64,000 nucleotides of DNA, from IMG/VR virus record IMGVR_UViG_3300031087_000014; one strand, written 5' to 3'. Position numbers and translations under genes: made by a program. The stretch comes from a virus. The notes below the pieces were generated by a model. It was given only the letters and a program-made list of their open reading frames with translations. It was not told the DNA's origin and ran no database searches. This document shows, in pieces, positions 14,310 through 30,386 of this stretch (the first letter of the stretch is position 1; every line of letters starts with the position of its first letter).

Positions 14310-14384
14310 TGGTTGCTCCAGCAGGTAACGATCCTGCTTCTGTCGCTTATCAGGCGACTGTAATACCTTTATACTATAGAGCAA
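14310..14384 (-). tRNA. tRNA-Ile(GAT)
   Basis: Cloverleaf; gtcgc-CTGATAA-gcgac; CCA end; T-loop variant ATCGTTA. Confidence 0.85.
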
Positions 14385-14389
14385 TTGAT

Positions 14390-14470
14390 TGGCACGTAGG
14401 TGATGATTCGAACACCTAAACTAACGGGTTTGGAAGCCGTCTCCTGACCACCAGGATTAGTGACCCACGT
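14390..14470 (-). tRNA. atypical tRNA-Trp(CCA)
   Basis: Acceptor acgtggg/cctacgt plus GCCA; TTCGAAT T-loop; loop TTCCAAA; irregular D arm. Confidence 0.6.
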
Positions 14471-14477
14471 ATTTATT

Positions 14478-14556
14478 TGGTGGAGAATAAGAGACTTGAA
14501 CTCTTCTGGTATCCTCGGTGCAAGCGAGGTGTCCACTCCTGGCAGACCCATTCCCC
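14478..14556 (-). tRNA. tRNA-Ala(TGC)
   Basis: cctcg-CTTGCAC-cgagg; G3:U70; ACCA end. Confidence 0.9.
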
Positions 14557-14561
14557 TAATT

Positions 14562-14706
14562 TGGCATCGTAGAAAGGAATCGAACCCCTCAGAGTAGGCG
14601 ATCAACTCTACCTGTGACCCTCATCACTTGGGAGATTAGCTACATCACCACCTCCGTCGAGGAAGTATCTCGTAACCATCTTTCCTTTGCTTTGTATCAC
14701 TACGAC
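14562..14706 (-). ncRNA. 145-nt tRNA-scaffold ncRNA
   Basis: Acceptor gtcgtag/ctacgat plus GCCA and TTCGATT T-arm; ~110-nt non-tRNA body. Confidence 0.65.
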
Positions 14707-14730
14707 ATTTTATTTGGTGATCATTTCATT

Positions 14731-14816
14731 TGGTACATCAGGTGAGACTCGAACTCACACGTCACAAGGACACTGGAACCTAAATCCAGGGCGTCTACCA
14801 ATTTCGCCACTGATGC
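14731..14816 (-). tRNA. tRNA-Leu(TAG)
   Basis: ctgga-TTTAGGT-tccag; long variable arm; ACCA end. Confidence 0.9.
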
Positions 14817-14823
14817 ATTTGTT

Positions 14824-14890
14824 TAGTGGAATCGTGCAGATTCGAACTGCATCCGGCTCCCTACGGGAACCAGTCACCCAAATCAATTCC
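14824..14890 (-). ncRNA. 67-nt mini tRNA-like RNA lacking a D stem
   Basis: Acceptor ggaattg/cgattcc; T-arm tgcag-TTCGAAT-ctgca; one 9-bp hairpin; ends ACTA. Confidence 0.6.
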
Positions 14891-14897
14891 GAGTGTT

Positions 14898-14979
14898 TGG
14901 AAGCGAGAGCGGAAGTCGAATCCGCAATTTTCAGGGTATGAGCCTAACGTGATCTATATATCCGTTTCACTATCTCGCT
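14898..14979 (-). tRNA. tRNA-Met(CAT)
   Basis: ttagg-CTCATAC-cctga; enlarged D loop; CCA end. Confidence 0.8.
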
Positions 14980-15063
14980 ATTGTTAAATCAGCTTTAAAC
15001 TAAAAGCATTATCCACGGCCCTATCAGACTCCTATCTTCAATTAGGGAATCGTAGCCTTGATA

Positions 15064-15136
15064 TGGTGCAGATGCAAGGATTCGAACCTCGAACAAACAC
15101 CTTCGTAGAGTGTTGCCTGTCCATCAGGACACCTGC
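15064..15136 (-). tRNA. tRNA-Arg(ACG)
   Basis: acact-CTACGAA-ggtgt; short D arm; CCA end. Confidence 0.8.
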
Positions 15137-15141
15137 AAAAA

Positions 15142-15216
15142 TGGTGCGACCTGCTGGTAACGATCCAGCCTTTCTGCCTTTTCAGGGCAGCACACATCCG
15201 TCTATGTCAAAGTCGC
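15142..15216 (-). tRNA. tRNA-Phe(GAA)
   Basis: ctgcc-CTGAAAA-ggcag; T-loop variant ATCGTTA; CCA end. Confidence 0.85.
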
Positions 15217-15250
15217 TTTGAAACCGATATCATCTTCGATTTCTATTGTT

Positions 15251-15328
15251 TGGTCAGTGCAGGGTGAATCGAACACCCGACCTCCTGCTCCCAAAGCAGG
15301 CGCTGCTACCAGGCTGAGCTATGCACTG
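15251..15328 (-). tRNA. tRNA-Pro(TGG)
   Basis: cctgc-TTTGGGA-gcagg; CCA end. Confidence 0.92.
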
Positions 15329-15334
15329 AATATT

Positions 15335-15411
15335 TGGGGTGGCTAATGGGACTCGAACCCACATAGAACTGCATCACAGGCAGCGTCATTAAGCCATTAT
15401 GATATAGCCAC
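15335..15411 (-). tRNA. tRNA-His(GTG)
   Basis: gctgc-CTGTGAT-gcagt; C73 plus CCA. Confidence 0.88.
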
Positions 15412-15443
15412 ATCTTAGTGCTCTCATTGAAAACACTAAAATT

Positions 15444-15518
15444 TGGCAGAGGTGAGAGGAGTTGAACCTGCTGCTACGGGAGTCAAAGGCCCGTGTGCTA
15501 CCATTACACCACACCCCT
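15444..15518 (-). tRNA. tRNA-Gln(TTG)
   Basis: Loop CTTTGAC; GCCA end. Confidence 0.88.
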
Positions 15519-15524
15519 AGTATT

Positions 15525-15669
15525 TGGCGAACAGGAAGGAGTCGAACCTTCGTACACATCCTTTGGCGAGGCTATGTATTCTTGAATGCCCATACTAATT
15601 ATGTTTTGTTAGTCAAACAAGCGCCAACTTGCGAACCCTAACGCTACACTTTCATATTGCATCTATCCG
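15525..15669 (-). ncRNA. second 145-nt tRNA-scaffold ncRNA
   Basis: cggatag/ctgttcg end pairing plus CCA; T-arm gaagg-TTCGACT-ccttc; no canonical anticodon arm. Confidence 0.6.
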
Positions 15670-15675
15670 ATAATT

Positions 15676-15747
15676 TGTTGAAGCTAGAAGATAAATCTTC
15701 ATTTGTCAATCTCGGAAGTGACAAGTTTTGCATTAAACTATAGCTTC
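15676..15747 (-). ncRNA. remodelled or degenerate tRNA-like element
   Basis: gaagcta/tagcttc acceptor; D stem; ttgtca/tgacaa stem with 10-nt loop; T stem with 4-nt loop; ends AACA. Confidence 0.55.
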
Positions 15748-15753
15748 TTTTTT

Positions 15754-15841
15754 TGGTATCGTGGACGGGATTCGAACCCGTAAGCAGAAAACTGCGCCAG
15801 ATTGAAAGTCTGGTTACTTAGGCCAATTTGTATACCACGAT
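15754..15841 (-). tRNA. tRNA with TTC (Glu) anticodon and long variable arm
   Basis: ccaga-CTTTCAA-tctgg; gcag-tttt-ctgc variable hairpin; A73 plus CCA. Confidence 0.85.
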
Positions 15842-15847
15842 ATAATT

Positions 15848-15924
15848 TGGAGCGAGATATCGGATTCGAACCGATGACGAACTGCTTGGAAGGCAGACAC
15901 TCTACCAGACTGAGTTAAACTCGC
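15848..15924 (-). tRNA. tRNA-Gly(TCC)
   Basis: Loop CTTCCAA; U73 plus CCA. Confidence 0.92.
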
Positions 15925-16050
15925 AATGTTGAAGGGCTAGCTGTGTGCTGCATATAGAGACATTGCACACCCACGCTGTAAATATTCTCGTTGGAAAACA
16001 CTTACAGAGATCTCTACTGGTATCCAGTTATTCCCCTTCTTGGGATACTC

Positions 16051-16101
16051 CGCGCTACGCTTCACAGCGTTTCGTCTTATTTCAAAGACTCATCAGGCGC
16101 G
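16051..16101 (-). ncRNA. type I hammerhead ribozyme core
   Basis: cgcgc-CTGATGA-gtctt(tgaaat)aagac-GAAA-cgct(gtga)agcg-TA-gcgcg; all core nucleotides and three stems present. Confidence 0.9.
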
Positions 16102-16434
16102 TTTGCTTGATAATATACGATCACGTAGACCTTTTATGTGCCGTCGCGGTCACAACCTGTTATGATAAATCACAGTGCAGGTAGGGGAGAGGGTATAACA
16201 TTTCTGCTATCTCGTGTCGCCCTCTCTAAACAACCTCCATCACTAAAGACTGGACGCTATTGTTATTTGTGGGACAGTGACGGATATCCCTTTGCTGACT
16301 AGGCTACGTTCGGGACTGCTACCTTACAATGTTACAAGCTGTTGCGAATAACTCTGCTCGGTGCTCTCGACAAGAAGTACCCGCTGATACTATGCTCTTG
16401 TCATCCATACTCGCGGTCAAGCTTTCTGGTCATC

Positions 16435-16510
16435 TGGTGCTTGCAGCAGGACTTGAACCCGCGACCCACTGATTACAAAACAGTAGCTCTACCAACTGAG
16501 CTATACAAGC
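16435..16510 (-). tRNA. tRNA-Thr(TGT)
   Basis: Loop TTTGTAA; ACCA end. Confidence 0.92.
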
Positions 16511-16511
16511 T

Positions 16512-16685
16512 TTATCTTAATGGAATACCTTTGTATTCTCTTGAACGTATCAGTGCTTCTCTTCGTTTACGAGCTTCACGTTTTACGTTGTTTGGTGAAC
16601 GAGGATATTCACTGTAGACTTGAAAAGTTCTATTAACTTCTCTTGGTTCATCAAAGGAACCTATGGTCTGCTTCTGGAATGTCAT
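16512..16685 (-). CDS. small basic hypothetical protein (57 aa)
   Basis: AGGAG RBS, ATG at 16685; lies between tRNA-Asn and tRNA-Thr. Confidence 0.6.
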   Translation of the reverse strand: MTFQKQTIGSFDEPREVNRTFQVYSEYPRSPNNVKREARKRREALIRSREYKGIPLR

Positions 16686-16700
16686 ATCATTCTCCTGTAT

Positions 16701-16778
16701 TGGCGATCCTAGCAGGACTCGAACCTGCAACCGGTGGATTAACAGTCCACTGCTCTAACCAATTATAGCTATAGAATC
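16701..16778 (-). tRNA. tRNA-Asn(GTT)
   Basis: gtgga-CTGTTAA-tccac; GCCA end. Confidence 0.92.
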
Positions 16779-16784
16779 ATTGTT

Positions 16785-16869
16785 TGGTGAAATCTACTTT
16801 TCGAGCTTGTATCCCCGAAGGACTGAGTGATATAGATCACGCCATCTCGTCTTCCCTTATTTCGATTTC
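16785..16869 (-). ncRNA. 85-nt CCA-ended non-tRNA RNA
   Basis: gaaatc/gatttc plus ACCA; inner cgag/ctcg stem closing gtgat-ctat-atcac and a cTTCGg hairpin; no T-loop. Confidence 0.45.
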
Positions 16870-16875
16870 ATTATT

Positions 16876-16957
16876 TGGTGGGGCTGCCTGGATTCGAACC
16901 AGGGCGTGGTATGCCTGATTTACAGTCAGGTGCGTTCGGCCTCTCCGCCACATCCCC
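16876..16957 (-). tRNA. tRNA-Tyr(GTA)
   Basis: cctga-CTGTAAA-tcagg; ACCA end. Confidence 0.92.
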
Positions 16958-17025
16958 TTAAACTTTATTTATCAATACTATATCATAAAAGTATTCAGAA
17001 GTAAAGATTTATTTTACTTTTTGTT

Positions 17026-17102
17026 TGGTGCATCGCGGAGGATTCGAACCTCCAGTATTCTGATTAAAAGTCAGATGCCTTATCCAGTTTAGCTAGCGAT
17101 GC
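17026..17102 (-). tRNA. tRNA-Lys(TTT)
   Basis: tctga-CTTTTAA-tcaga; ACCA end. Confidence 0.92.
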
Positions 17103-17103
17103 G

Positions 17104-17197
17104 TGGAGGAGAATATCAGACTTGAACTGATACGCCGCGTTTCCGCGACTACTGAGTGTTTAGCAAACACTTCCCTTACCGTTAGGGTTAATTCTCC
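17104..17197 (-). tRNA. tRNA-Ser(GCT)
   Basis: agtgt-TTGCTAA-acact; long variable arm. Confidence 0.9.
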
Positions 17198-17238
17198 GTT
17201 ACTTCTTATCGGTGTGATTTCTCACTCAATATCTTAGT

Positions 17239-17314
17239 TGGCGGGGATAGAGGAAATCGAATCCTCGGCTCCGCAGTGACAGTGCGGTATTTTTACCAAC
17301 TAAACTATATCCCC
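17239..17314 (-). tRNA. tRNA-Asp(GTC)
   Basis: ccgca-CTGTCAC-tgcgg; GCCA end. Confidence 0.92.
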
Positions 17315-17320
17315 TTAATT

Positions 17321-17411
17321 TGGAGGAAGGTAATGGAGTCGAACCATCATCGGCTATTAACCGATGGGCTGGTTTTCAAGACCAGTTACTCACCGCTGAG
17401 TCCTACCTTCC
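17321..17411 (-). tRNA. tRNA-Ser(TGA)
   Basis: ctggt-CTTGAAA-accag; long variable arm. Confidence 0.9.
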
Positions 17412-17452
17412 TTTAAGTAGTTGTTAACTAACAATCTTCTCTACTTAATACC

Positions 17453-17481
17453 AATGTACCACGTATTTGATTGTCTGTCAA
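17453..17481 (-). promoter_or_regulatory. sigma70-like promoter for the tRNA array
   Basis: TTGACA-17-TACATT. Confidence 0.65.
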
Positions 17482-17498
17482 CAACTATTTTAAACTAT

Positions 17499-17678
17499 TT
17501 ACTGCTTGGTAGAACGAGCGCGTTCACGCTTAGTTTTACCAGTACGGATGCGGTGAGACACTTTCTTCACTTCGCCGTTGATGGTAATTTCAACTGGCTT
17601 ACTTTCAGTCTGAGTAGACTTGCTCTCAAACTGGAAAGGCTGAATGATTTTGTCTACTGCGCTTACTTTCTTACCCAT
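17499..17678 (-). CDS. small basic hypothetical protein (59 aa)
   Basis: AAGGAG RBS, ATG at 17678 (MGKKVSAV...). Confidence 0.6.
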   Translation of the reverse strand: MGKKVSAVDKIIQPFQFESKSTQTESKPVEITINGEVKKVSHRIRTGKTKRERARSTKQ

Positions 17679-17877
17679 TATGTCTCTCCTTATATGATTT
17701 ATTTTTAAATTGTGCCTCTCTGTCGCCATAAGCGAGGCTACTTACTATGATCGGAAAACAAAAAGTTACAATAACTTTTAAAAACGATGGCTTGTATATT
17801 TCATTAAGTTGTGCTCGACAAGAAGGCTAGTCTACAAACGCTACAACTTTAAATCAACGCATATACCAGACGCAAAC

Positions 17878-17954
17878 TGGCACTCCGTGAGGGATTCGAA
17901 CCCCCAACCTAGAGAGTAGAAATCTCTTGCGCTATCCAATTGCGCTAACGGAGC
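17878..17954 (-). tRNA. tRNA-Arg(TCT)
   Basis: agaga-TTTCTAC-tctct; GCCA end. Confidence 0.92.
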
Positions 17955-20156: not shown

Positions 20157-21866
20157 TTATTTCAGATACTTGCTCACCGTTTCATCCAAGATGCAGCGAA
20201 CTTCGTCGATACTTACGTCAACAACCATTTGGCTATTGCGGAAGATTTCTTTCAGTTCATTGCGCTCTGACGAGATATCGGAGAAAGACAAACCATCTTC
20301 CAATACCAGATCTCCATCTGGGCTAGCCACTACAGCCAAGAATCCACGAGCAGAACGTTTACCTAAGTCGGTTTTTGGTTCCTTGCTTACAAGAATCTCG
20401 TTACCGTCAATGATACAACCTGTAGCTTTACAAGCAAAGCCGAAAGTATCACGAGTGCTGTAGTTGTAAGTGTAACTACCAACACCAAGAACGATATTGC
20501 TCGATGCAAAACCATTCGCCTCCAGACGTTTGAAGATTTCCTTGGTCAGACTAACAGTAATACTGTCACCGTAGATCAGGCCAATATGTTCATCCAGAAC
20601 TTTGTAGCCCTTACTGTTGACAGTGCCGCCAAAGGTTTCCCACAGAATCTGAATAGTACCTACAGCTTCGTGACGGGGAATCTCATATACTTCGTTGATG
20701 CTGGCGTTAATGGTACGATCACCAGTAATATCGTAGTATTTGTCACGGTCTTCCAGGTAAATAACTTCTGTACTAATTCCAACACTCGAAGTCTGCATTG
20801 TCTGCCAATCTTTGAAGCTTTCAATCTTGTAACCGCAAATAATATGCAGGGGCTTACCGCTATCTGGACGGATAACTAATTTACCGTCACGTTCCATAAT
20901 CTCTTCTTTCAAGAGAGGAAGGATCTCAGTGACCAGCGCCCAATAGTCATAACTATCTGCCACGTAAGACACGATGCCGTCAGGGTAAATCTGAGTGACA
21001 TACTTACGCAAGAATTCCAGTTCAGAGAAGAAGCGTTGTTCATCAACGTTCATTGCTGCAAAACCATCAACTTCGATCATCAGTTTAGCCAAGATATCAC
21101 TAATGTTGGTGGTAGCTACGCTGTGTTCTGATGCTGGGATGCTTCCAGCTACAAAGGTATCTTCGCCGTAGTAGAAATCATCTACGTAGCAAACTGCACG
21201 TAATGTGTCAGTACCTTTAAATGCCAGTAAGTGACCGAAGCCTGAACGATAGCCATCATCGATACCAGATAAGCCACGAGCAGAGAAATCGTGAAACTGG
21301 AAGGCTAAGTGATCTTTGCTGTCACAAGTAGATTCAGCGTAAGACTCACCCAGCAGACGATACTGGAATGCGATAGTCGCATTGTTCATTGTCTTCCAGG
21401 TTTCTGCACTCAGCATAGTTTCCAGATAGTTCACCAACCAAGCAAAGCCTGCTACTGTATTGTGAATCGTATAAACTGGAACCTGAATCGGACACAGTAC
21501 ACCTTCTGGTAGCGCTCGTACAGACAGAGGCAAATAACCTAAGTCGTGCAGTGCTTCGATGTGATCAGTGCGATTCTGACGACCGTTATAGCGAGTCATA
21601 AACTTAGAGTATTCCGCAACGACTTCATCTTTTGGACGAGAGAAGAAGTTTTCATTCCAATCGTCAATCAGTCGTTCTTTAATCACGCCCTGGATACCAG
21701 CAGCAATTACGCCGCGAGGTGCATTAGGTGCGTAATGCGGGAAGTACTTATCACCGCGAGGGGTGAAGTTAGAAAACAGGATTTCCATATTGTCAGCGTA
21801 CTGGTCAATGTGGCTTGGTTTGTAACCGTCAGTGTTGAACAGTGGGTTTTTAATACGTTTAGCCAT
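20157..21866 (-). CDS. NAMPT-like enzyme (Namat of NARP1-type NAD+ reconstitution)
   Basis: TDGYKPSH, FHDFSARG, IPASEHS, VIRPDSG, GLIYGDSI and RDTFGFA motifs. Confidence 0.9.
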   Translation of the reverse strand: MAKRIKNPLFNTDGYKPSHIDQYADNMEILFSNFTPRGDKYFPHYAPNAPRGVIAAGIQGVIKERLIDDWNENFFSRPKDEVVAEYSKFMTRYNGRQNRTDHIEALHDLGYLPLSVRALPEGVLCPIQVPVYTIHNTVAGFAWLVNYLETMLSAETWKTMNNATIAFQYRLLGESYAESTCDSKDHLAFQFHDFSARGLSGIDDGYRSGFGHLLAFKGTDTLRAVCYVDDFYYGEDTFVAGSIPASEHSVATTNISDILAKLMIEVDGFAAMNVDEQRFFSELEFLRKYVTQIYPDGIVSYVADSYDYWALVTEILPLLKEEIMERDGKLVIRPDSGKPLHIICGYKIESFKDWQTMQTSSVGISTEVIYLEDRDKYYDITGDRTINASINEVYEIPRHEAVGTIQILWETFGGTVNSKGYKVLDEHIGLIYGDSITVSLTKEIFKRLEANGFASSNIVLGVGSYTYNYSTRDTFGFACKATGCIIDGNEILVSKEPKTDLGKRSARGFLAVVASPDGDLVLEDGLSFSDISSERNELKEIFRNSQMVVDVSIDEVRCILDETVSKYLK

Positions 21867-21929
21867 AATCATATCTCCTTTTCGTTTTCGATAGGGAGAG
21901 TCTACACCCTCCCTGATTATTGTCAATAC

Positions 21930-22820
21930 TTAGTTGTAGTATTTGTTCAAAATAACACGGCGACTGATCCCCTGGTTTAGTACGAGGATATCTTGGTCAA
22001 TCTCAACATTATCTTTCCAGACGTTAAGAGAGTGTACGCGGTCAATGATACCTTCCAGAGGACGAAGCCCTTTAGAGAAAATACCGTGAGTTACGTAGAG
22101 ATCTACACGTCCTGCGTTACGACTCTTGAGAAGTTCAGCTAGTTTGATGAATGTATAGCCGCCGTCACAGATATCATCCACGATGATTAGATTTCGACCT
22201 TTGAAGTCTTGGACAGAAATATCTGTGTGTTTGATAGCTCCAGTAGCAGTATCACGAATCTTTTCAGCACAGTAAACATCTACTCCACCTAATTCTTTCG
22301 CAACCTTGAAGATTTTCTTCAAAGCGCCAGCGTCAGGAGACACGATAGCGAAGTTATCCATTGGGATGTAGTGTCCCAGCATTTCTTTCACAATCTTCTC
22401 TTGTGGAATGATGGTGAGTCGGTCGATCAGTGCCGGAGTAACGTCACTGTGCGGATCTGCAATTACCACCTCTTCAAAGTCCCAGCTATTGATGATATTA
22501 GCAAACACCTTAAGCCCGAATGCCTCTCCTGCTTCACAAGGGCGATCCTGACGACCGTAAGGAACGTAGAGCATAATCAGCTTCACTGGAACACGGAAGT
22601 GAGCACAACGCGATATAGCGTCTTTAATCATACCTACTCGCATAAGGTCATCACTGCTGCGGATTTCTGCTTCAATAATCACTTCATCACCGTAAGAGAT
22701 TTCCTTTAATGCTTCTGGCAGAACAATGTGTTCTTCCCCAGCAGAGAATCGGAAAGACTTAACAGGACACTCAATCGTGTTCATATTAAAACCTAACATA
22801 GTGCGGATACTTACTTTCAT
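21930..22820 (-). CDS. ribose-phosphate pyrophosphokinase-like enzyme (Adps of NARP1-type pathway)
   Basis: FSAGE, YVPYGRQDR, DPHS, VSPDAGA and IVDDICDGGYT motifs. Confidence 0.9.
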   Translation of the reverse strand: MKVSIRTMLGFNMNTIECPVKSFRFSAGEEHIVLPEALKEISYGDEVIIEAEIRSSDDLMRVGMIKDAISRCAHFRVPVKLIMLYVPYGRQDRPCEAGEAFGLKVFANIINSWDFEEVVIADPHSDVTPALIDRLTIIPQEKIVKEMLGHYIPMDNFAIVSPDAGALKKIFKVAKELGGVDVYCAEKIRDTATGAIKHTDISVQDFKGRNLIIVDDICDGGYTFIKLAELLKSRNAGRVDLYVTHGIFSKGLRPLEGIIDRVHSLNVWKDNVEIDQDILVLNQGISRRVILNKYYN

Positions 22821-26529: not shown

Positions 26530-26886
26530 ATGAAACCAGACACTATCCTGTGGTTGGATGATGTACGTGACCCTAAAAACTTTGGTATGGAAGGTGCTGT
26601 CTGGATCAAGACATTCTCAGACTTCGAAAATACTCTTCATACCTTGATCGAAGCGATGCAGGATGATAATATCGTTCACATCAGTTTTGATAATGACCTG
26701 GGCACTGAGGAAGAAGGGTATGATGGATTCTGTATCTTGGAGGAGTATCTTCATATGGGATACTTCGAAGGGCTGAAAAAGATCACAGTACATTCATCAA
26801 ACCCTAGCGCAGTTCATAAGTTTATGTTAGTATCTCGGGCAATGAAGGCTCACTTTGATATTGACCTTTTACGTACACCACTTTGA
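26530..26886 (+). CDS. cyclic-phosphate-processing receiver-like domain protein
   Basis: LWLDDVRDP, ISFDNDLG and VHSSNP motifs. Confidence 0.7.
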   Translation: MKPDTILWLDDVRDPKNFGMEGAVWIKTFSDFENTLHTLIEAMQDDNIVHISFDNDLGTEEEGYDGFCILEEYLHMGYFEGLKKITVHSSNPSAVHKFMLVSRAMKAHFDIDLLRTPL

Positions 26887-26895
26887 GGAGTAATT

Positions 26896-27810
26896 ATGAT
26901 TGACGTTAGCGTAGTTCTGGAATACCTTAAGGATTACCGCGAAGAACTGAAACAACCTATGGATCGTGTGCTGGCAAGAAAGGCATTGTTCACCAACGGT
27001 GTTCCAGTAATGAGCTTCGAGGAGATGGTTTCCTTTGATAGTGATGTTTTCGACGAAATGTTTGAATACTACATCACAACAGGACGTAAGCCAAGTCGCC
27101 GCCCTATATTGGAGCGTATTTACCCTTGGTTTGGATATGTAAAAGGTAATGTGTATTGGGGCAAAGCTGTAGATGTTGAGCGGCGTGCTCTGAGAAAAAT
27201 GCAGATGAAAGACTTGCATTACTCGGAGGATAATGTACACTTCGTATCGGATGTTCATTTCTTGCATAAGAATATCATCCATCACAACCGAAACAACATC
27301 TCAAACATTGATGAAATGCATCATCTGCTGATTGAAGCGTGGAACAAACAAGTGGGGCCAAACGATTTGGTGTTTGACTTGGGGGATCTCACCTTGGGTA
27401 GTATGACTAAGGGATTGGAATTACTTAAGCAGTTGAATGGCTTTATTATTCATCTGAAAGGAAACCACGTTAGTGAAAAGGAATGGGAGTATTACGATAT
27501 GAATCTCCCTAAACAAAAGTTTGTTGACAGTAGCTACTTATGCAGTACAATCAACGGGCAGAAGATTGCAATGTGTCACTTCCCGATTCTGAGTTGGGAC
27601 GATATGCACCGCGATAGCTGGCACCTGTTTGGTCACTGTCACGGAAGTAATGCAATGGAGCAGCATATGGGCAAGGCGATGGATGTTGGAGTAGATGCAA
27701 CTGTAGGCATTACTGAATCACTCCGTCCTGTCTCTATGGCAGAAGTAAGAACAGTTATGGCTGGCAAAAGAATTGTTAGCTGGGATCATCACGAAGTAGG
27801 AGGAAACTAA
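26896..27810 (+). CDS. calcineurin-like metallophosphoesterase
   Basis: SDVHF, LGD, GNH and GHCHG motifs. Confidence 0.85.
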   Translation: MIDVSVVLEYLKDYREELKQPMDRVLARKALFTNGVPVMSFEEMVSFDSDVFDEMFEYYITTGRKPSRRPILERIYPWFGYVKGNVYWGKAVDVERRALRKMQMKDLHYSEDNVHFVSDVHFLHKNIIHHNRNNISNIDEMHHLLIEAWNKQVGPNDLVFDLGDLTLGSMTKGLELLKQLNGFIIHLKGNHVSEKEWEYYDMNLPKQKFVDSSYLCSTINGQKIAMCHFPILSWDDMHRDSWHLFGHCHGSNAMEQHMGKAMDVGVDATVGITESLRPVSMAEVRTVMAGKRIVSWDHHEVGGN

Positions 27811-27811
27811 T

Positions 27812-28834
27812 ATGAGCAATATCAAATACCCGAGCACAAACCAGTTCCGTCAGGTAGTTAAGACAATGAAAACTCAACTGGAGTATGATCATTATAATCC
27901 AGAGACGCAGGAACACGTCACAAAGATTCCAGAAACGTATGTGATCCCTTACATCGGTACTGTGAAGATTCACGGCACCAACGGTAGCGTACTTTTCCGC
28001 TCAGAAACTGATTTCATCTTCCAATCAAAAGCCCAGCAGGTAGACATTGGGAAAGATAATGCCGGATTTGCAGCGTTTATGCATCGCAAAGATATGGATC
28101 TTCTGCTGGCGCGAGTACGTAAAGTATGTGAGGATCATAACGTAACATTTGAGTTCCCTGTCGAGATTGCTGGAGAGTGGGCAGGTCGTGGTATTCAGAA
28201 AGGCGTTGCTGTTACTGAGGTTGAACCATTCTTCGCTGTATTCCGTGTTGCAGTAGGTGAGCGTCCTAATGGCGGTCTGAAATGGCTTCCGACAGATATC
28301 ATCGGGCCAGTGTCTGATAATGAAAACCGGATCTTCAACATTCTACAGTTTGGCTTTGTTCCACTGGAGATTGACTTTGAAAATCCTCAGAATGTACAGA
28401 ACACCCTCGTATCTCTGACAGAAGAAGCAGAGAAAGAATGTCCGGCAGGTAAGTTCTTTGGTGTGTCTGGTATCGGTGAAGGTTATGTTTGGACTCCTGC
28501 TGATCCATCTCTGGCTATTGACTCTGGCTTGTGGTTTAAAGTGAAAGGCGATAAGCACTCTGTTTCTAAGGTTAAGACCTTGGCGGCAGTAGACCCTGAA
28601 CGTATGGCAAACATCGCTGAGTTTGTGGAATATGCCGTAACTGAAAATCGTCTGGAGCAGGCTCTGGGTGAAGTAGGCTTGGATAAGACCAAGATCGGAG
28701 AGTTTGTTAAGTGGATGTCTACAGACATTCTTAAAGAGGAAGGCGATGTTATGGAAGCCTCCGCTCTAACAATGAAAGATGTTGGTAAGAACATCTCTGA
28801 TAAATCCCGTAAATGGTATATGGCTAAACTGTAA
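27812..28834 (+). CDS. RNA ligase 2-like protein
   Basis: KIHGTN motif I; GEWAG; GEGYV; FKVK. Confidence 0.8.
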   Translation: MSNIKYPSTNQFRQVVKTMKTQLEYDHYNPETQEHVTKIPETYVIPYIGTVKIHGTNGSVLFRSETDFIFQSKAQQVDIGKDNAGFAAFMHRKDMDLLLARVRKVCEDHNVTFEFPVEIAGEWAGRGIQKGVAVTEVEPFFAVFRVAVGERPNGGLKWLPTDIIGPVSDNENRIFNILQFGFVPLEIDFENPQNVQNTLVSLTEEAEKECPAGKFFGVSGIGEGYVWTPADPSLAIDSGLWFKVKGDKHSVSKVKTLAAVDPERMANIAEFVEYAVTENRLEQALGEVGLDKTKIGEFVKWMSTDILKEEGDVMEASALTMKDVGKNISDKSRKWYMAKL

Positions 28835-28847
28835 GAGGAGAATTAAA

Positions 28848-29972
28848 ATGCAAGTAACTGACTTCCTGAAAACACCTGGTAACTCTCTGACCCTGTTAAC
28901 TCTGTCTACAGGCATAAAAGTGAAAGAATATCCAGAAGAGGGCTTATACGTCCTAAACTATGACCAGATAGATAGTCCAAAGACACATCCTCTGGTTATG
29001 GAGTGCCGAGCACTGATCCTTGACAGGGAGTTTAATGTGGTTGCTCGTTCATTTGACCGATTCTTCAACCTGAATGAAGCGCCGGATACACAGGCGCATT
29101 TAGATTGGGATATTGCTGAGATTGCTGATAAAGTAGATGGTAGTCTAATCAAACTGTACTACTGGAACGGTGCTTGGCGCTTCTCTACTCGTGGCACAGC
29201 ATTTGCTGAAAGCCAGTGTATGAATAGTGAATACACATTCCACGATCTTTGCGTCAAAGCTTCTAACGCTAGTTATATGGAAGAGGTAGAGGCGTCAGCA
29301 GAACTGGCTGATCTTGACCAGGGAGTTACATACCTACTGGAGCTTACTTGTCGTGAAAACCGAGTGGTAACAGTATATGAGGGCTATCATCTGCACTTCT
29401 TAGGTGCTCGTCGTAATGACACTGGTGAATATGTGACTGTCCCTAATAGTGCATTATGGGTGATGAACTGGAAAGCTGTTAATAAGTATAAGTTTAACAG
29501 TGCTCAAGCTTGTAAAGAGACAGCCGAAAAGCTTCCTAATCTGGCAGAAGGTTATGTTGTTTACCAGAATGGCATCCCTGTTTGTAAGGTGAAGTCTCCA
29601 GCATACGTTGCTGTCCACCATCTCCGAGGTAACGGTATCCCTTCTTTGAAGCGTATTGTTGATTTGGTTGCTGTGGGTGAAGAAGACGAGTATCTTACTT
29701 ACTTCCCAGAGGACAGAAAGTACTTTGATCCGGTGACTCAAGCTAAGGCTTGGATTATCAATCAGGCTGATGCTATGTGGCACGTAGCTAAAGATATTGA
29801 GGAACAGAAGAAGTTTGCCATTGTGGTGAAAGATCTGTCCTTTGCTTGGTTGCTGTTTCAAGCAAGAAAGGTAAACAAGGAGCCGTCTGAGGTGTTCAAC
29901 TCCGCTCCGCTGGAGAAGCGATCTAAGACAATCCTGAACTATGTCGAAAAAGCAGGGAATGCTTTGAAATAA
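28848..29972 (+). CDS. RNA ligase 1 (T4 RnlA-like)
   Basis: ECRALI, RFFN, KVDGSLI, EGYV and KVKS motifs; start MQVTD at 28848. Confidence 0.85.
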   Translation: MQVTDFLKTPGNSLTLLTLSTGIKVKEYPEEGLYVLNYDQIDSPKTHPLVMECRALILDREFNVVARSFDRFFNLNEAPDTQAHLDWDIAEIADKVDGSLIKLYYWNGAWRFSTRGTAFAESQCMNSEYTFHDLCVKASNASYMEEVEASAELADLDQGVTYLLELTCRENRVVTVYEGYHLHFLGARRNDTGEYVTVPNSALWVMNWKAVNKYKFNSAQACKETAEKLPNLAEGYVVYQNGIPVCKVKSPAYVAVHHLRGNGIPSLKRIVDLVAVGEEDEYLTYFPEDRKYFDPVTQAKAWIINQADAMWHVAKDIEEQKKFAIVVKDLSFAWLLFQARKVNKEPSEVFNSAPLEKRSKTILNYVEKAGNALK

Positions 29973-29981
29973 GGAGGAAAA

Positions 29982-30386
29982 TTGAAGAATTTCTATATCA
30001 TTCGTGGTGTATCTGGGAGTGGCAAGTCCACTCTCGCTAAAACAATGTCTGAGGCTCTTGGAGCTTCACATTTAGAAGCTGATATGCTGCTATACAATAA
30101 CCAAGGAGAATACGTCTGGACAAAAGAAGGCGTATCTGAGGCACATCGACAGACTGCGATTCATCTGTATCACTTAATGGAGTCAGGTGAGTCTAATATA
30201 ATTCTGTCCGATACCTCTGCAAAACAAAAAGATATGCAAAAATACCTTGATCTGGCTAAAGAGAAGGGTTACACTACGACAGTGATTGTAGTTGAGAACC
30301 GTCACGGCGGTAAGTCCATTCACGATGTAAGCGAGGAAACACTAGCTAAACAACGTGATCGTATCCGAAGCACTATTTCACTCTAA
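29982..30386 (+). CDS. P-loop kinase (polynucleotide kinase-like)
   Basis: RGVSGSGKST; directly after the RNA ligases. Confidence 0.7.
   Translation: MKNFYIIRGVSGSGKSTLAKTMSEALGASHLEADMLLYNNQGEYVWTKEGVSEAHRQTAIHLYHLMESGESNIILSDTSAKQKDMQKYLDLAKEKGYTTTVIVVENRHGGKSIHDVSEETLAKQRDRIRSTISL

Follow-up and report, generated by a model that had tools for sequence, protein, structure and literature searches.

A candidate hammerhead processing module joined to a conserved double-pseudoknot RNA in phage tRNA arrays

A hammerhead motif located between two tRNA genes of a phage genome is probably the 5' processing module of a composite RNA gene, from which it would free a discrete small RNA with a probable function in trans. 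The composite gene extends from 16101 to 15925 on the minus strand of the window, by which we mean the whole 64,000-nt stretch of viral DNA that was analysed, and consists of the hammerhead as a 5' module followed by an RNA of approximately 131 nt that contains two pseudoknots (16055-15925, referred to here as the knotted RNA). The ribozyme class is known; what is new is its fusion with an uncatalogued, circularly permutable knotted RNA, together with a defined job for the ribozyme. That job is concrete and testable, and would be either to set the precise 5' terminus of one particular conserved RNA or to open a loop within it. The partner RNA has more than 100 distinct copies and two covarying pseudoknots, and is found in phages of Enterobacteria and Actinobacteria and in those of marine and soil communities.

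Results

Genomic setting of the hammerhead

The window is part of a 141-kb virus record that is 96% complete according to CheckV, and the phage is distantly related to the phi92-like / Stephanstirmvirinae enterobacterial myoviruses (55-62% protein identity). Eighteen tRNA genes are located on the minus strand at 14310-17954. All 18 were recognized by ARAGORN and 16 reached threshold with the Rfam tRNA model, the tRNA-Ala (UGC) at 14478-14556 and the tRNA-Phe (GAA) at 15142-15216 being found by ARAGORN only. The order of the tRNAs resembles that of Klebsiella phage FKP3, in which the spacer between the Thr and Gly tRNAs is without the element. Adjoining the array, as in phi92-like phages, are NAD-salvage genes for a nicotinamide/nicotinate phosphoribosyltransferase and a ribose-phosphate pyrophosphokinase-like protein (20157-22820, minus strand).

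The motif (16051-16101, minus strand) lies within this tRNA array, as originally predicted, in a gap of 510 nt between tRNA-Thr (UGU; 16435-16510), its upstream neighbour, and tRNA-Gly (UCC; 15848-15924), both on the minus strand. The predicted cut falls 381 nt past tRNA-Thr and 131 nt ahead of tRNA-Gly. RNase P would be expected to act at the 5' boundary of tRNA-Gly (15924), and the knotted RNA has its 3' end 1 nt from this site, at 15925. This spacing is 3 nt in the closest relatives of the window phage (L002, L028, L035, and L039) and likewise in L048. Between tRNA-Thr and the hammerhead is a minus-strand stretch of approximately 330 nt without ORFs (16102-16434), for which no Rfam match was obtained; a promoter within the stretch was also considered, and none was found on the transcribed strand. 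The four closest relatives lack the stretch altogether, their tRNA-Thr being positioned 14 nt before the hammerhead. The statement in the original prediction that the ribozyme is not adjacent to a tRNA end is thus correct for this genome only, and does not hold for the relatives, in which the ribozyme follows the CCA of tRNA-Thr by 14 nt. A block of about 25 nt from the stretch, GATATCCGTCACTGTCCCACAAATAA, is also present in the Thr-Gly spacer of FKP3 (about 1728-1760 of L006) and upstream of the hammerhead in L048.

Sequence and fold of the hammerhead

The minus strand from 16101 to 16051 reads CGCGC-CUGAUGA-GUCUU(UGAAAU)AAGAC-GAAA-CGCU(GUGA)AGCG-UA-GCGCG, matching letter by letter the complete type I hammerhead with three perfect stems that had been proposed. 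Stem I is formed by 16101-16097 with 16055-16051, stem II by 16089-16085 with 16078-16074, and stem III by 16069-16066 with 16061-16058; stems II and III are capped by the loops UGAAAU and GUGA, respectively, and stem I is open, which is the connectivity of a type I hammerhead. The core consists of CUGAUGA (16096-16090) and the GAA (16073-16071) of the GAAA segment at 16073-16070. The remaining nucleotide of that segment, A16070, pairs with U16057 as the A15.1-U16.1 pair that closes stem III. Position H17 is A16056, and from the positions of core and stems the scissile bond is predicted to lie after A17, between A16056 and G16055, upholding the cleavage site initially assigned. The three-stem junction is also the minimum-free-energy structure of the 63-nt stretch around the hammerhead.

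We estimated how often such a motif arises by chance. The linear core pattern alone is no rarer than chance, with 4 matches against about 8 expected. The full motif with its stems occurs a single time in the 141-kb genome, and a motif with lenient stems (3/3/4 bp) occurred at 0.027 hits per genome in 300 first-order Markov genomes; the stems of the window motif, at 5/5/5 bp, are above those of this test. No further copies of the element and no other hammerheads were found in the genome of the window phage.

A tertiary contact between stems I and II is normally required for fast hammerhead cleavage at the Mg2+ concentrations found in cells. Inspection for such a contact revealed no consistent partner for loop II. 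Loop II (U-GAAA-U) and loop III (GUGA) of the window hammerhead are both of the GNRA type, and could conceivably dock on the knotted domain.

Conservation of the hammerhead among relatives

The relatives provided 18 distinct hammerhead variants, all of which keep C3-U4-G5-A6, G8-A9, G12-A13-A14, and the A15.1-U16.1 pair. N7 is U, C, or A in these variants and H17 is A or C, and the stems change yet stay paired. A tally of the cores was restricted to the 91 strictly parsed copies, and gave CUGAUGA in 47, CUGACGA in 33, CUGAAGA in 10, and CUGAGGA in 1; the cleavage dinucleotide in these copies is UC (60), UA (27), or UU (4), corresponding to C, A, or U at H17. In an alignment of 24 copies, compensatory pairs were found in stem I (2), stem II (3), and stem III (2), with 98-100% of cells paired, and A15.1-U16.1 was an A-U pair in 24 of 24. 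An alignment of the cultured phages likewise has a core that is kept except at N7 and H17, with covariation of stems II and III, and the RNA downstream of the hammerhead is even better conserved in this alignment than the ribozyme itself. The original prediction had looked to related phages for conservation and covariation and had named a degenerate core in close relatives as evidence against it. The core was found to be invariant apart from N7 and H17, and all three stems covary.

It is this conservation and covariation in the relatives, beyond the letters of the core, that settles the question of whether the hammerhead is real. Taken together with the Markov genomes, the conserved core and the covarying stems exclude a chance origin of the full motif. 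The 18 variants and 91 parsed copies indicate, at the level of sequence, that the hammerhead is under selection, and the window motif is a genuine and very probably active type I hammerhead. An additional variant is found in Mycobacterium phage Gaia, whose core UUGAUAA represents a U3/A8 version of the C3-G8 core pair; this is a natural hammerhead covariation that was earlier found to be active in vitro (PMC3088659).

The Rfam scan suggested as a check in the original prediction did not recover the ribozyme above threshold. The window hammerhead scored 13.7 bits with RF00163 (Hammerhead_1), against a gathering threshold of 34 bits, and 30.9 bits with RF00008 (Hammerhead_3), against 48.5 bits and with the alignment forced into the wrong type III topology. 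The gathering threshold is a database cut-off and no property of the hammerhead class. The element has gone unannotated because its hammerhead scores are under this curated threshold, and standard Rfam-based annotation misses the ribozyme and the knotted RNA alike.

A double-pseudoknot RNA downstream of the ribozyme

A distant blastn search of the spacer against cultured phages matched the window at 16103-15927, that is, over the hammerhead and the next 126 nt, with the match breaking off at tRNA-Gly. The matches are in phages of about 40 kb that are unrelated to the window phage: Pectobacterium phages Pappous and Taid, Dickeya phage Setonix, and Enterobacter phage SDFMU_EhYP. Rather than being free-standing, the ribozyme is an integral yet dispensable module of a widespread, circularly permutable RNA.

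The knotted RNA, the predicted 3' product of the ribozyme, is made up of the hairpins Ha and Hc, the long hairpin Hb, and the pseudoknots PK1 and PK2. Its chain in the window begins on the minus strand with a remnant of loop L1 (GCGCG-GA, 16055-16049), followed by hairpin Ha (16048-16043/16025-16020). The loop strand of Ha contains GAAGGG (16039-16034), which pairs with CCCUUC (15936-15931) near the 3' end to form PK1, and the invariant A-rich loop GAAUAACU (16033-16026). PK1 and Ha constitute an H-type pseudoknot, of which L1 is the first loop and, in the window phage, the start of the chain. PK2 is formed by GUAGAGAU (16017-16010) with the loop of Hc (15961-15954). Between these strands are the Hb hairpin of 14 bp (16007-15994/15989-15976), the CGUGG block (15975-15971), and the 5' strand of Hc (15970-15965/15948-15943). 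Hc is followed by AGCUAG (15942-15937), the 3' strand of PK1, and a tail, AACAUU (15930-15925), which abuts tRNA-Gly.

The helices of the knotted RNA all covary. A formal count was made in the alignment of 24 hammerhead-first copies (alignment A2), in which 96.3% of cells were paired compared to 35-47% with slid partners, and 28 of 51 pairs contained compensatory changes. The covariation score of this alignment was 0.392 compared to no more than 0.106 for the slid controls, and none of 500 shuffles reached the observed values. Over the whole family, Ha occurs in 17 versions and its strands are complementary in every one of the 109 copies. PK1 has 17 variants and pairs along its full length in 99 of 103 copies, PK2 is represented by 79 different sequences of 6-10 bp, and Hc has 53 variants. 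The conservation of G-U pairs in Hb indicates that selection acts on the minus strand as RNA. Outside the helices, about 45 nucleotides are near-invariant across very different phages, and the window copy carries the invariant blocks CGUGG, GCAG, A-CU-G-CCC, CG(Y)GGAG, and GGGGAAUAACUGG as well as the helices of Ha, Hc, PK1, and PK2. We found no family for the knotted RNA in Rfam 15, whether at gathering threshold for the window and its relatives, in either gene order (E up to 10 for the window), in hammerhead-less permuted copies (E up to 1), or in odd copies (E up to 0.5).

Distribution and genomic context of the family

A pattern scan identified the element in 19 viral contigs and gave 26 matches in metagenome contigs, about 8 of these being due to chance. 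A relaxed scan, in which three base pairs of one helix were left free, had more than 117 viral contigs among the matches listed. The family set used for analysis contains at least 109 unique copies after removal of duplicates, drawn from viral and metagenome contigs, E. coli prophages, and cultured phages of Pectobacterium, Enterobacter, Mycobacterium, and Arthrobacter. The family must be wider than these 109 copies, because the Ha helix of Gaia alters CC/GG pairs that were held fixed in the search pattern. An exact 20-mer scan of species-representative genomes gave no match, indicating that sequence of the window type is rare outside phage collections.

The copies favour two kinds of location. 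A tRNA gene on the same strand is found within 450 nt of 24 of the 109 copies, and some copies exactly fill the spacer between two tRNAs. On the 3' side of the copies is a tRNA in 13 of 98 cases and an intrinsic terminator in 10 of 98, compared to 3 of 239 control windows. A terminator upstream of the element is not enriched as a general feature (5 of 99 compared to 3 of 244) and is confined to the lambdoid prophage subset. The element of Pappous and Setonix stops 5 nt short of a tRNA-Met and is located upstream of the genes for the scaffold and major head proteins. The actinophage copies are from Gaia and from Arthrobacter phages Constance and Karkharias; the contexts examined, those of Gaia and Constance, place the element among tRNA or tRNA-like genes, the Gaia copy (1473-1625 of L153, 77851-78003 of the record) lying directly after tRNA-Ser. 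The second frequent setting is the head of late or structural operons. In SDFMU_EhYP the element is situated between the capsid gene and the gene for tail tubular protein A. E. coli has the element, unannotated, in 15 of 5,426 complete genomes, within lambdoid or P22-like prophages and between the Q antiterminator gene and the holin gene. Lambdoid phages keep tRNA genes at the head of the late operon as well. The sharing of a genomic niche with phage tRNAs raises the possibility that the knotted RNA bears on tRNA-centred conflicts between phage and host.

Among the uncultivated phages with the knotted RNA, two carry RNase P RNA sequences within very large arrays that comprise roughly 25 tRNAs or more. 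One is a bacterial-type RNase P RNA (RF00010, 266 bits; L057 2968-3382, minus strand), and the other matches RF00010 at 92 bits, just under threshold (L064 4115-4423).

Two gene orders of one fold

The knotted RNA is encoded in two circular permutations. The hammerhead-first order of the window is a minority with 24 copies; 63-66 copies are permuted with the hammerhead inside L1, and 13 copies are permuted and without an intact hammerhead. Six copies ended by contig ends were left out of these classes. The chain of the permuted form starts with CGUGG and the PK1 half and ends with GGAG and the PK2 half. The outer flanks of this form pair with each other, often through 10-18 bp of unrelated sequence, in place of the Hb hairpin. 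One fold is therefore present throughout, in which L1 can be closed, cut open by the ribozyme, or the place where the chain starts and ends.

The core unit is the knotted RNA, and the hammerhead is an accessory to it, yet about 85% of copies retain it. Among the 13 copies that lack an intact hammerhead, seven have just a linker of 6-7 nt and a few have decayed cores (decayed hammerheads are seen in L075, L105, and L117), indicating that the break is dispensable for the knotted RNA. The permuted form does not require the hammerhead to make a chain end, yet the hammerhead is retained. The CG(C/U) preceding GGAG is kept even in hammerhead-less copies, indicating that the knotted RNA sets the sequence of the 3' strand in stem I, and this in turn accounts for the near-invariant CGCGC/GCGCG of the window's clade.

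Two other interpretations of the permuted copies were set aside. Searches with Rfam detected no other ribozyme class in place of the hammerhead in the copies with long linkers. A '6S-like rod' reading of a permuted look-alike was discarded, the helices quoted for it being PK1, PK2, and hammerhead stem III. In contig L143 two permuted copies, each with its own hammerhead, are arranged in tandem about 200 nt apart (about 1250-1600 of the reverse complement); the second of these has GGGGAAUAAAUGG in the invariant loop, and cutting at both sites would free a unit ordered as the RNA of the window is.

Discussion

Proposed processing of the composite RNA

The location of the predicted hammerhead cut exactly in L1, and of an RNase P site 1 nt past the 3' end, suggests a self-processing small-RNA cassette. 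We propose that the tRNA array is transcribed as a polycistron, in which the hammerhead would fold first and cut between A16056 and G16055. Such a cut would leave a 5'-OH on G16055, so that the last GCGCG of L1, which is also the 3' strand of stem I, would become the 5' end of the knotted RNA. In the gene order of the window a proper 5' end requires that the upstream RNA be removed exactly in L1, and this would be the task of the hammerhead. The 3' end at 15925 would be made by RNase P as it cuts at the 5' end of tRNA-Gly, a cleavage at 15924/15925 that is expected from established tRNA processing. The product would be a free and compact small RNA of approximately 131 nt with a 5'-OH; the by-product, comprising the tRNA-Thr trailer of approximately 330 nt and the ribozyme, would end in a 2',3'-cyclic phosphate. 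In the permuted phages, the chain starts and ends in Hb with the hammerhead in L1, and cleavage would open the same position. We thus infer cleavage, processing by RNase P, release as a stand-alone RNA, and action in trans by an RNA that is produced along with tRNAs and late genes and could, for instance, bind protein or serve as a decoy. The proposal agrees with the suggestion in the original prediction that the ribozyme matures a larger noncoding RNA instead of trimming a tRNA, with the amendment that this RNA would be the one downstream (16055-15925) and not the stretch of approximately 330 nt upstream. The tRNA neighbours, the spacer-filling copies, and the terminators speak for a discrete RNA that acts in trans rather than for a leader that acts purely in cis.

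Alternative explanations

Other roles for the cleavage and for the knotted RNA have to be weighed against the release of a trans-acting RNA. The knotted RNA could belong to a new functional class, either a sensor or a second ribozyme, for which the hammerhead serves as a built-in activation or effector step; we regard this as possible though rather unlikely. If it were true, a break at one position of L1, with 5'-OH and cyclic-phosphate ends, would be part of the function, and the element would be a natural aptamer-ribozyme or two-ribozyme device existing in two circular permutations. We also think it unlikely that the element is a cis-acting insulator or stabiliser, in which the cut detaches the downstream RNA and its 5'-OH end is capped by a decay-resistant knot. 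RiboJ, an engineered insulator in which a hammerhead and then a hairpin are placed in the 5' UTR, acts in this manner in cis on an mRNA. The natural element and RiboJ would both remove upstream RNA and leave a structured 5'-OH end, which for hammerhead cleavage is established chemistry, and a role of this kind would suit the many copies at the head of late or structural operons, where Q-like antiterminators are upstream and holin, small terminase, HNH, portal, scaffold, and major head genes are downstream; the element of SDFMU_EhYP, for instance, is about 50 nt before the start codon of tail tubular protein A. Unlike RiboJ, however, the natural element frequently forms a discrete RNA with tRNAs or terminators at its borders, many copies having their own terminator or tRNAs on both sides, and in the permuted majority half of the knot is upstream of the cut. 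Nor could the knot cap the tRNAs of the window, since RNase P would separate it from tRNA-Gly. Another possibility, that the knotted domain is an aptamer for a ligand or protein and switches the hammerhead as a natural allosteric ribozyme, would be consistent with the riboswitch-aptamer-like set of near-invariant nucleotides outside the helices. The CG(C/U) of L1 before GGAG doubles as the 3' strand of stem I, so that folding of the domain could compete with stem I. We nevertheless consider such a switch improbable, because seven copies are without any hammerhead, because in the window order the ribozyme would be transcribed and ready to cut before the domain exists, because terminators, where present, are directly after Hb with no obvious alternative pairing, and because some copies sit between two tRNAs with nothing to regulate.

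The window also encodes a set of RNA-repair proteins, and this raised the question of whether the ends are made to be rejoined, for example by circularising the knotted RNA through its L1-adjacent ends. The plus strand carries a gene for a cREC_REC protein (26530-26886), which has a receiver domain of the cyclic-phosphate-processing type, followed by one for a 304-aa protein and then by the genes for two RNA ligases, one Rnl2-like (27812-28834) and one Rnl1-like (28779-29972), and for a P-loop kinase (29982-30386). RtcB is found elsewhere, and is encoded immediately upstream of the element in marine contig L029; furthermore, the 5' end and the 3' tail of the hammerhead-first form are the two halves of L1. 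The window phage itself is without RtcB, however, and across element-bearing viral records RtcB is present in only 1 of 38 and Rnl1 in 2 of 38, with neither in any of the 24 records that are at least 90% complete; RNA ligases appear in 2 of 96 upstream-neighbour profiles. The repair cluster (26530-30386) is common to L028 and not to other phages that carry the element. We accordingly rejected a partnership with RNA repair on the basis of family-wide co-occurrence, the repair kit being a trait of the lineage of the window phage, and cleavage followed by religation is very improbable. It is still more improbable, to an extreme degree, that the hammerhead is a chance match or an inactive, decaying relic. 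The sub-threshold scores of the Rfam models and the decayed hammerheads of three relatives are what could be said for such a view. They are set against an expected frequency far below one per genome, a core and stems that are perfect in the window, and an invariant core with covarying stems in the relatives. The release of a discrete small RNA, with the hammerhead as its 5' processing module, is the most probable reading.

Relation to known RNAs

The hammerhead shares its core, junction, and open stem I with the type I hammerheads of bacteria, prophages, and phages (Perreault et al. 2011, PMC3088659; RF00163, clan CL00010). Also shared with these are the location in phage intergenic regions and, through Gaia, the U3/A8 variant (PMC3088659). 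The element differs in that the hammerhead is fused to, or embedded in, a conserved double-pseudoknot RNA, and in that the 3' strand of stem I is constrained by this partner. It differs also in its location in tRNA arrays and late-operon leaders, whereas the earlier hammerheads flank protein genes, those of phages having been placed between protein genes (Perreault et al. 2011, PMC3088659). What phage and bacterial hammerheads do biologically is in large part still to be established (PMC6765202), and a 2019 review gave the functions of the bacterial ones as still unknown.

The HDV-like theta ribozymes (Kienbeck et al. 2024, PMC10879173), to which the original prediction drew an analogy, similarly involve a small self-cleaving ribozyme that is co-transcribed with phage tRNAs. 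The analogy holds for location only. Theta ribozymes are of another class and adjacent to viral tRNAs, whereas the window hammerhead is at the 5' end of a non-tRNA RNA and its predicted cut defines no tRNA end; models of the HDV family gave no match at E up to 10 in 15900-16460. The theta-ribozyme paper makes no mention of hammerheads (PMC10879173).

Naturally permuted RNAs include hammerheads of types I-III, the P1, P3, and P5 forms of twister, two-piece tmRNA, SRP RNA, and tRNA genes (Eckert et al. 2023, PMC10085705). The knotted RNA is absent from those listed by these authors, and resembles them in having the same fold in two gene orders, one with Hb closed and L1 open and the other with Hb open and L1 closed. 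It is distinct in that its permuted unit combines a ribozyme with a second structured RNA, and in that the ribozyme itself supplies, in one order, the new chain end. We found no description of the composite RNA in the literature within the incomplete coverage of our search. Experiments are feasible at once, because the element is present in cultured phages (Pappous, Taid, Setonix, SDFMU_EhYP, Gaia, Constance, and Karkharias) and in E. coli lysogens. A stand-alone type I hammerhead, with no knotted RNA 3' of the ribozyme and no tRNAs nearby, was observed at 12385-12440 of L001, an unrelated AT-rich viral contig; its cleavage site is GUC, and its stem II and loop II (GUCUU-UGAAAU-AAGAC) are identical to those of the window.
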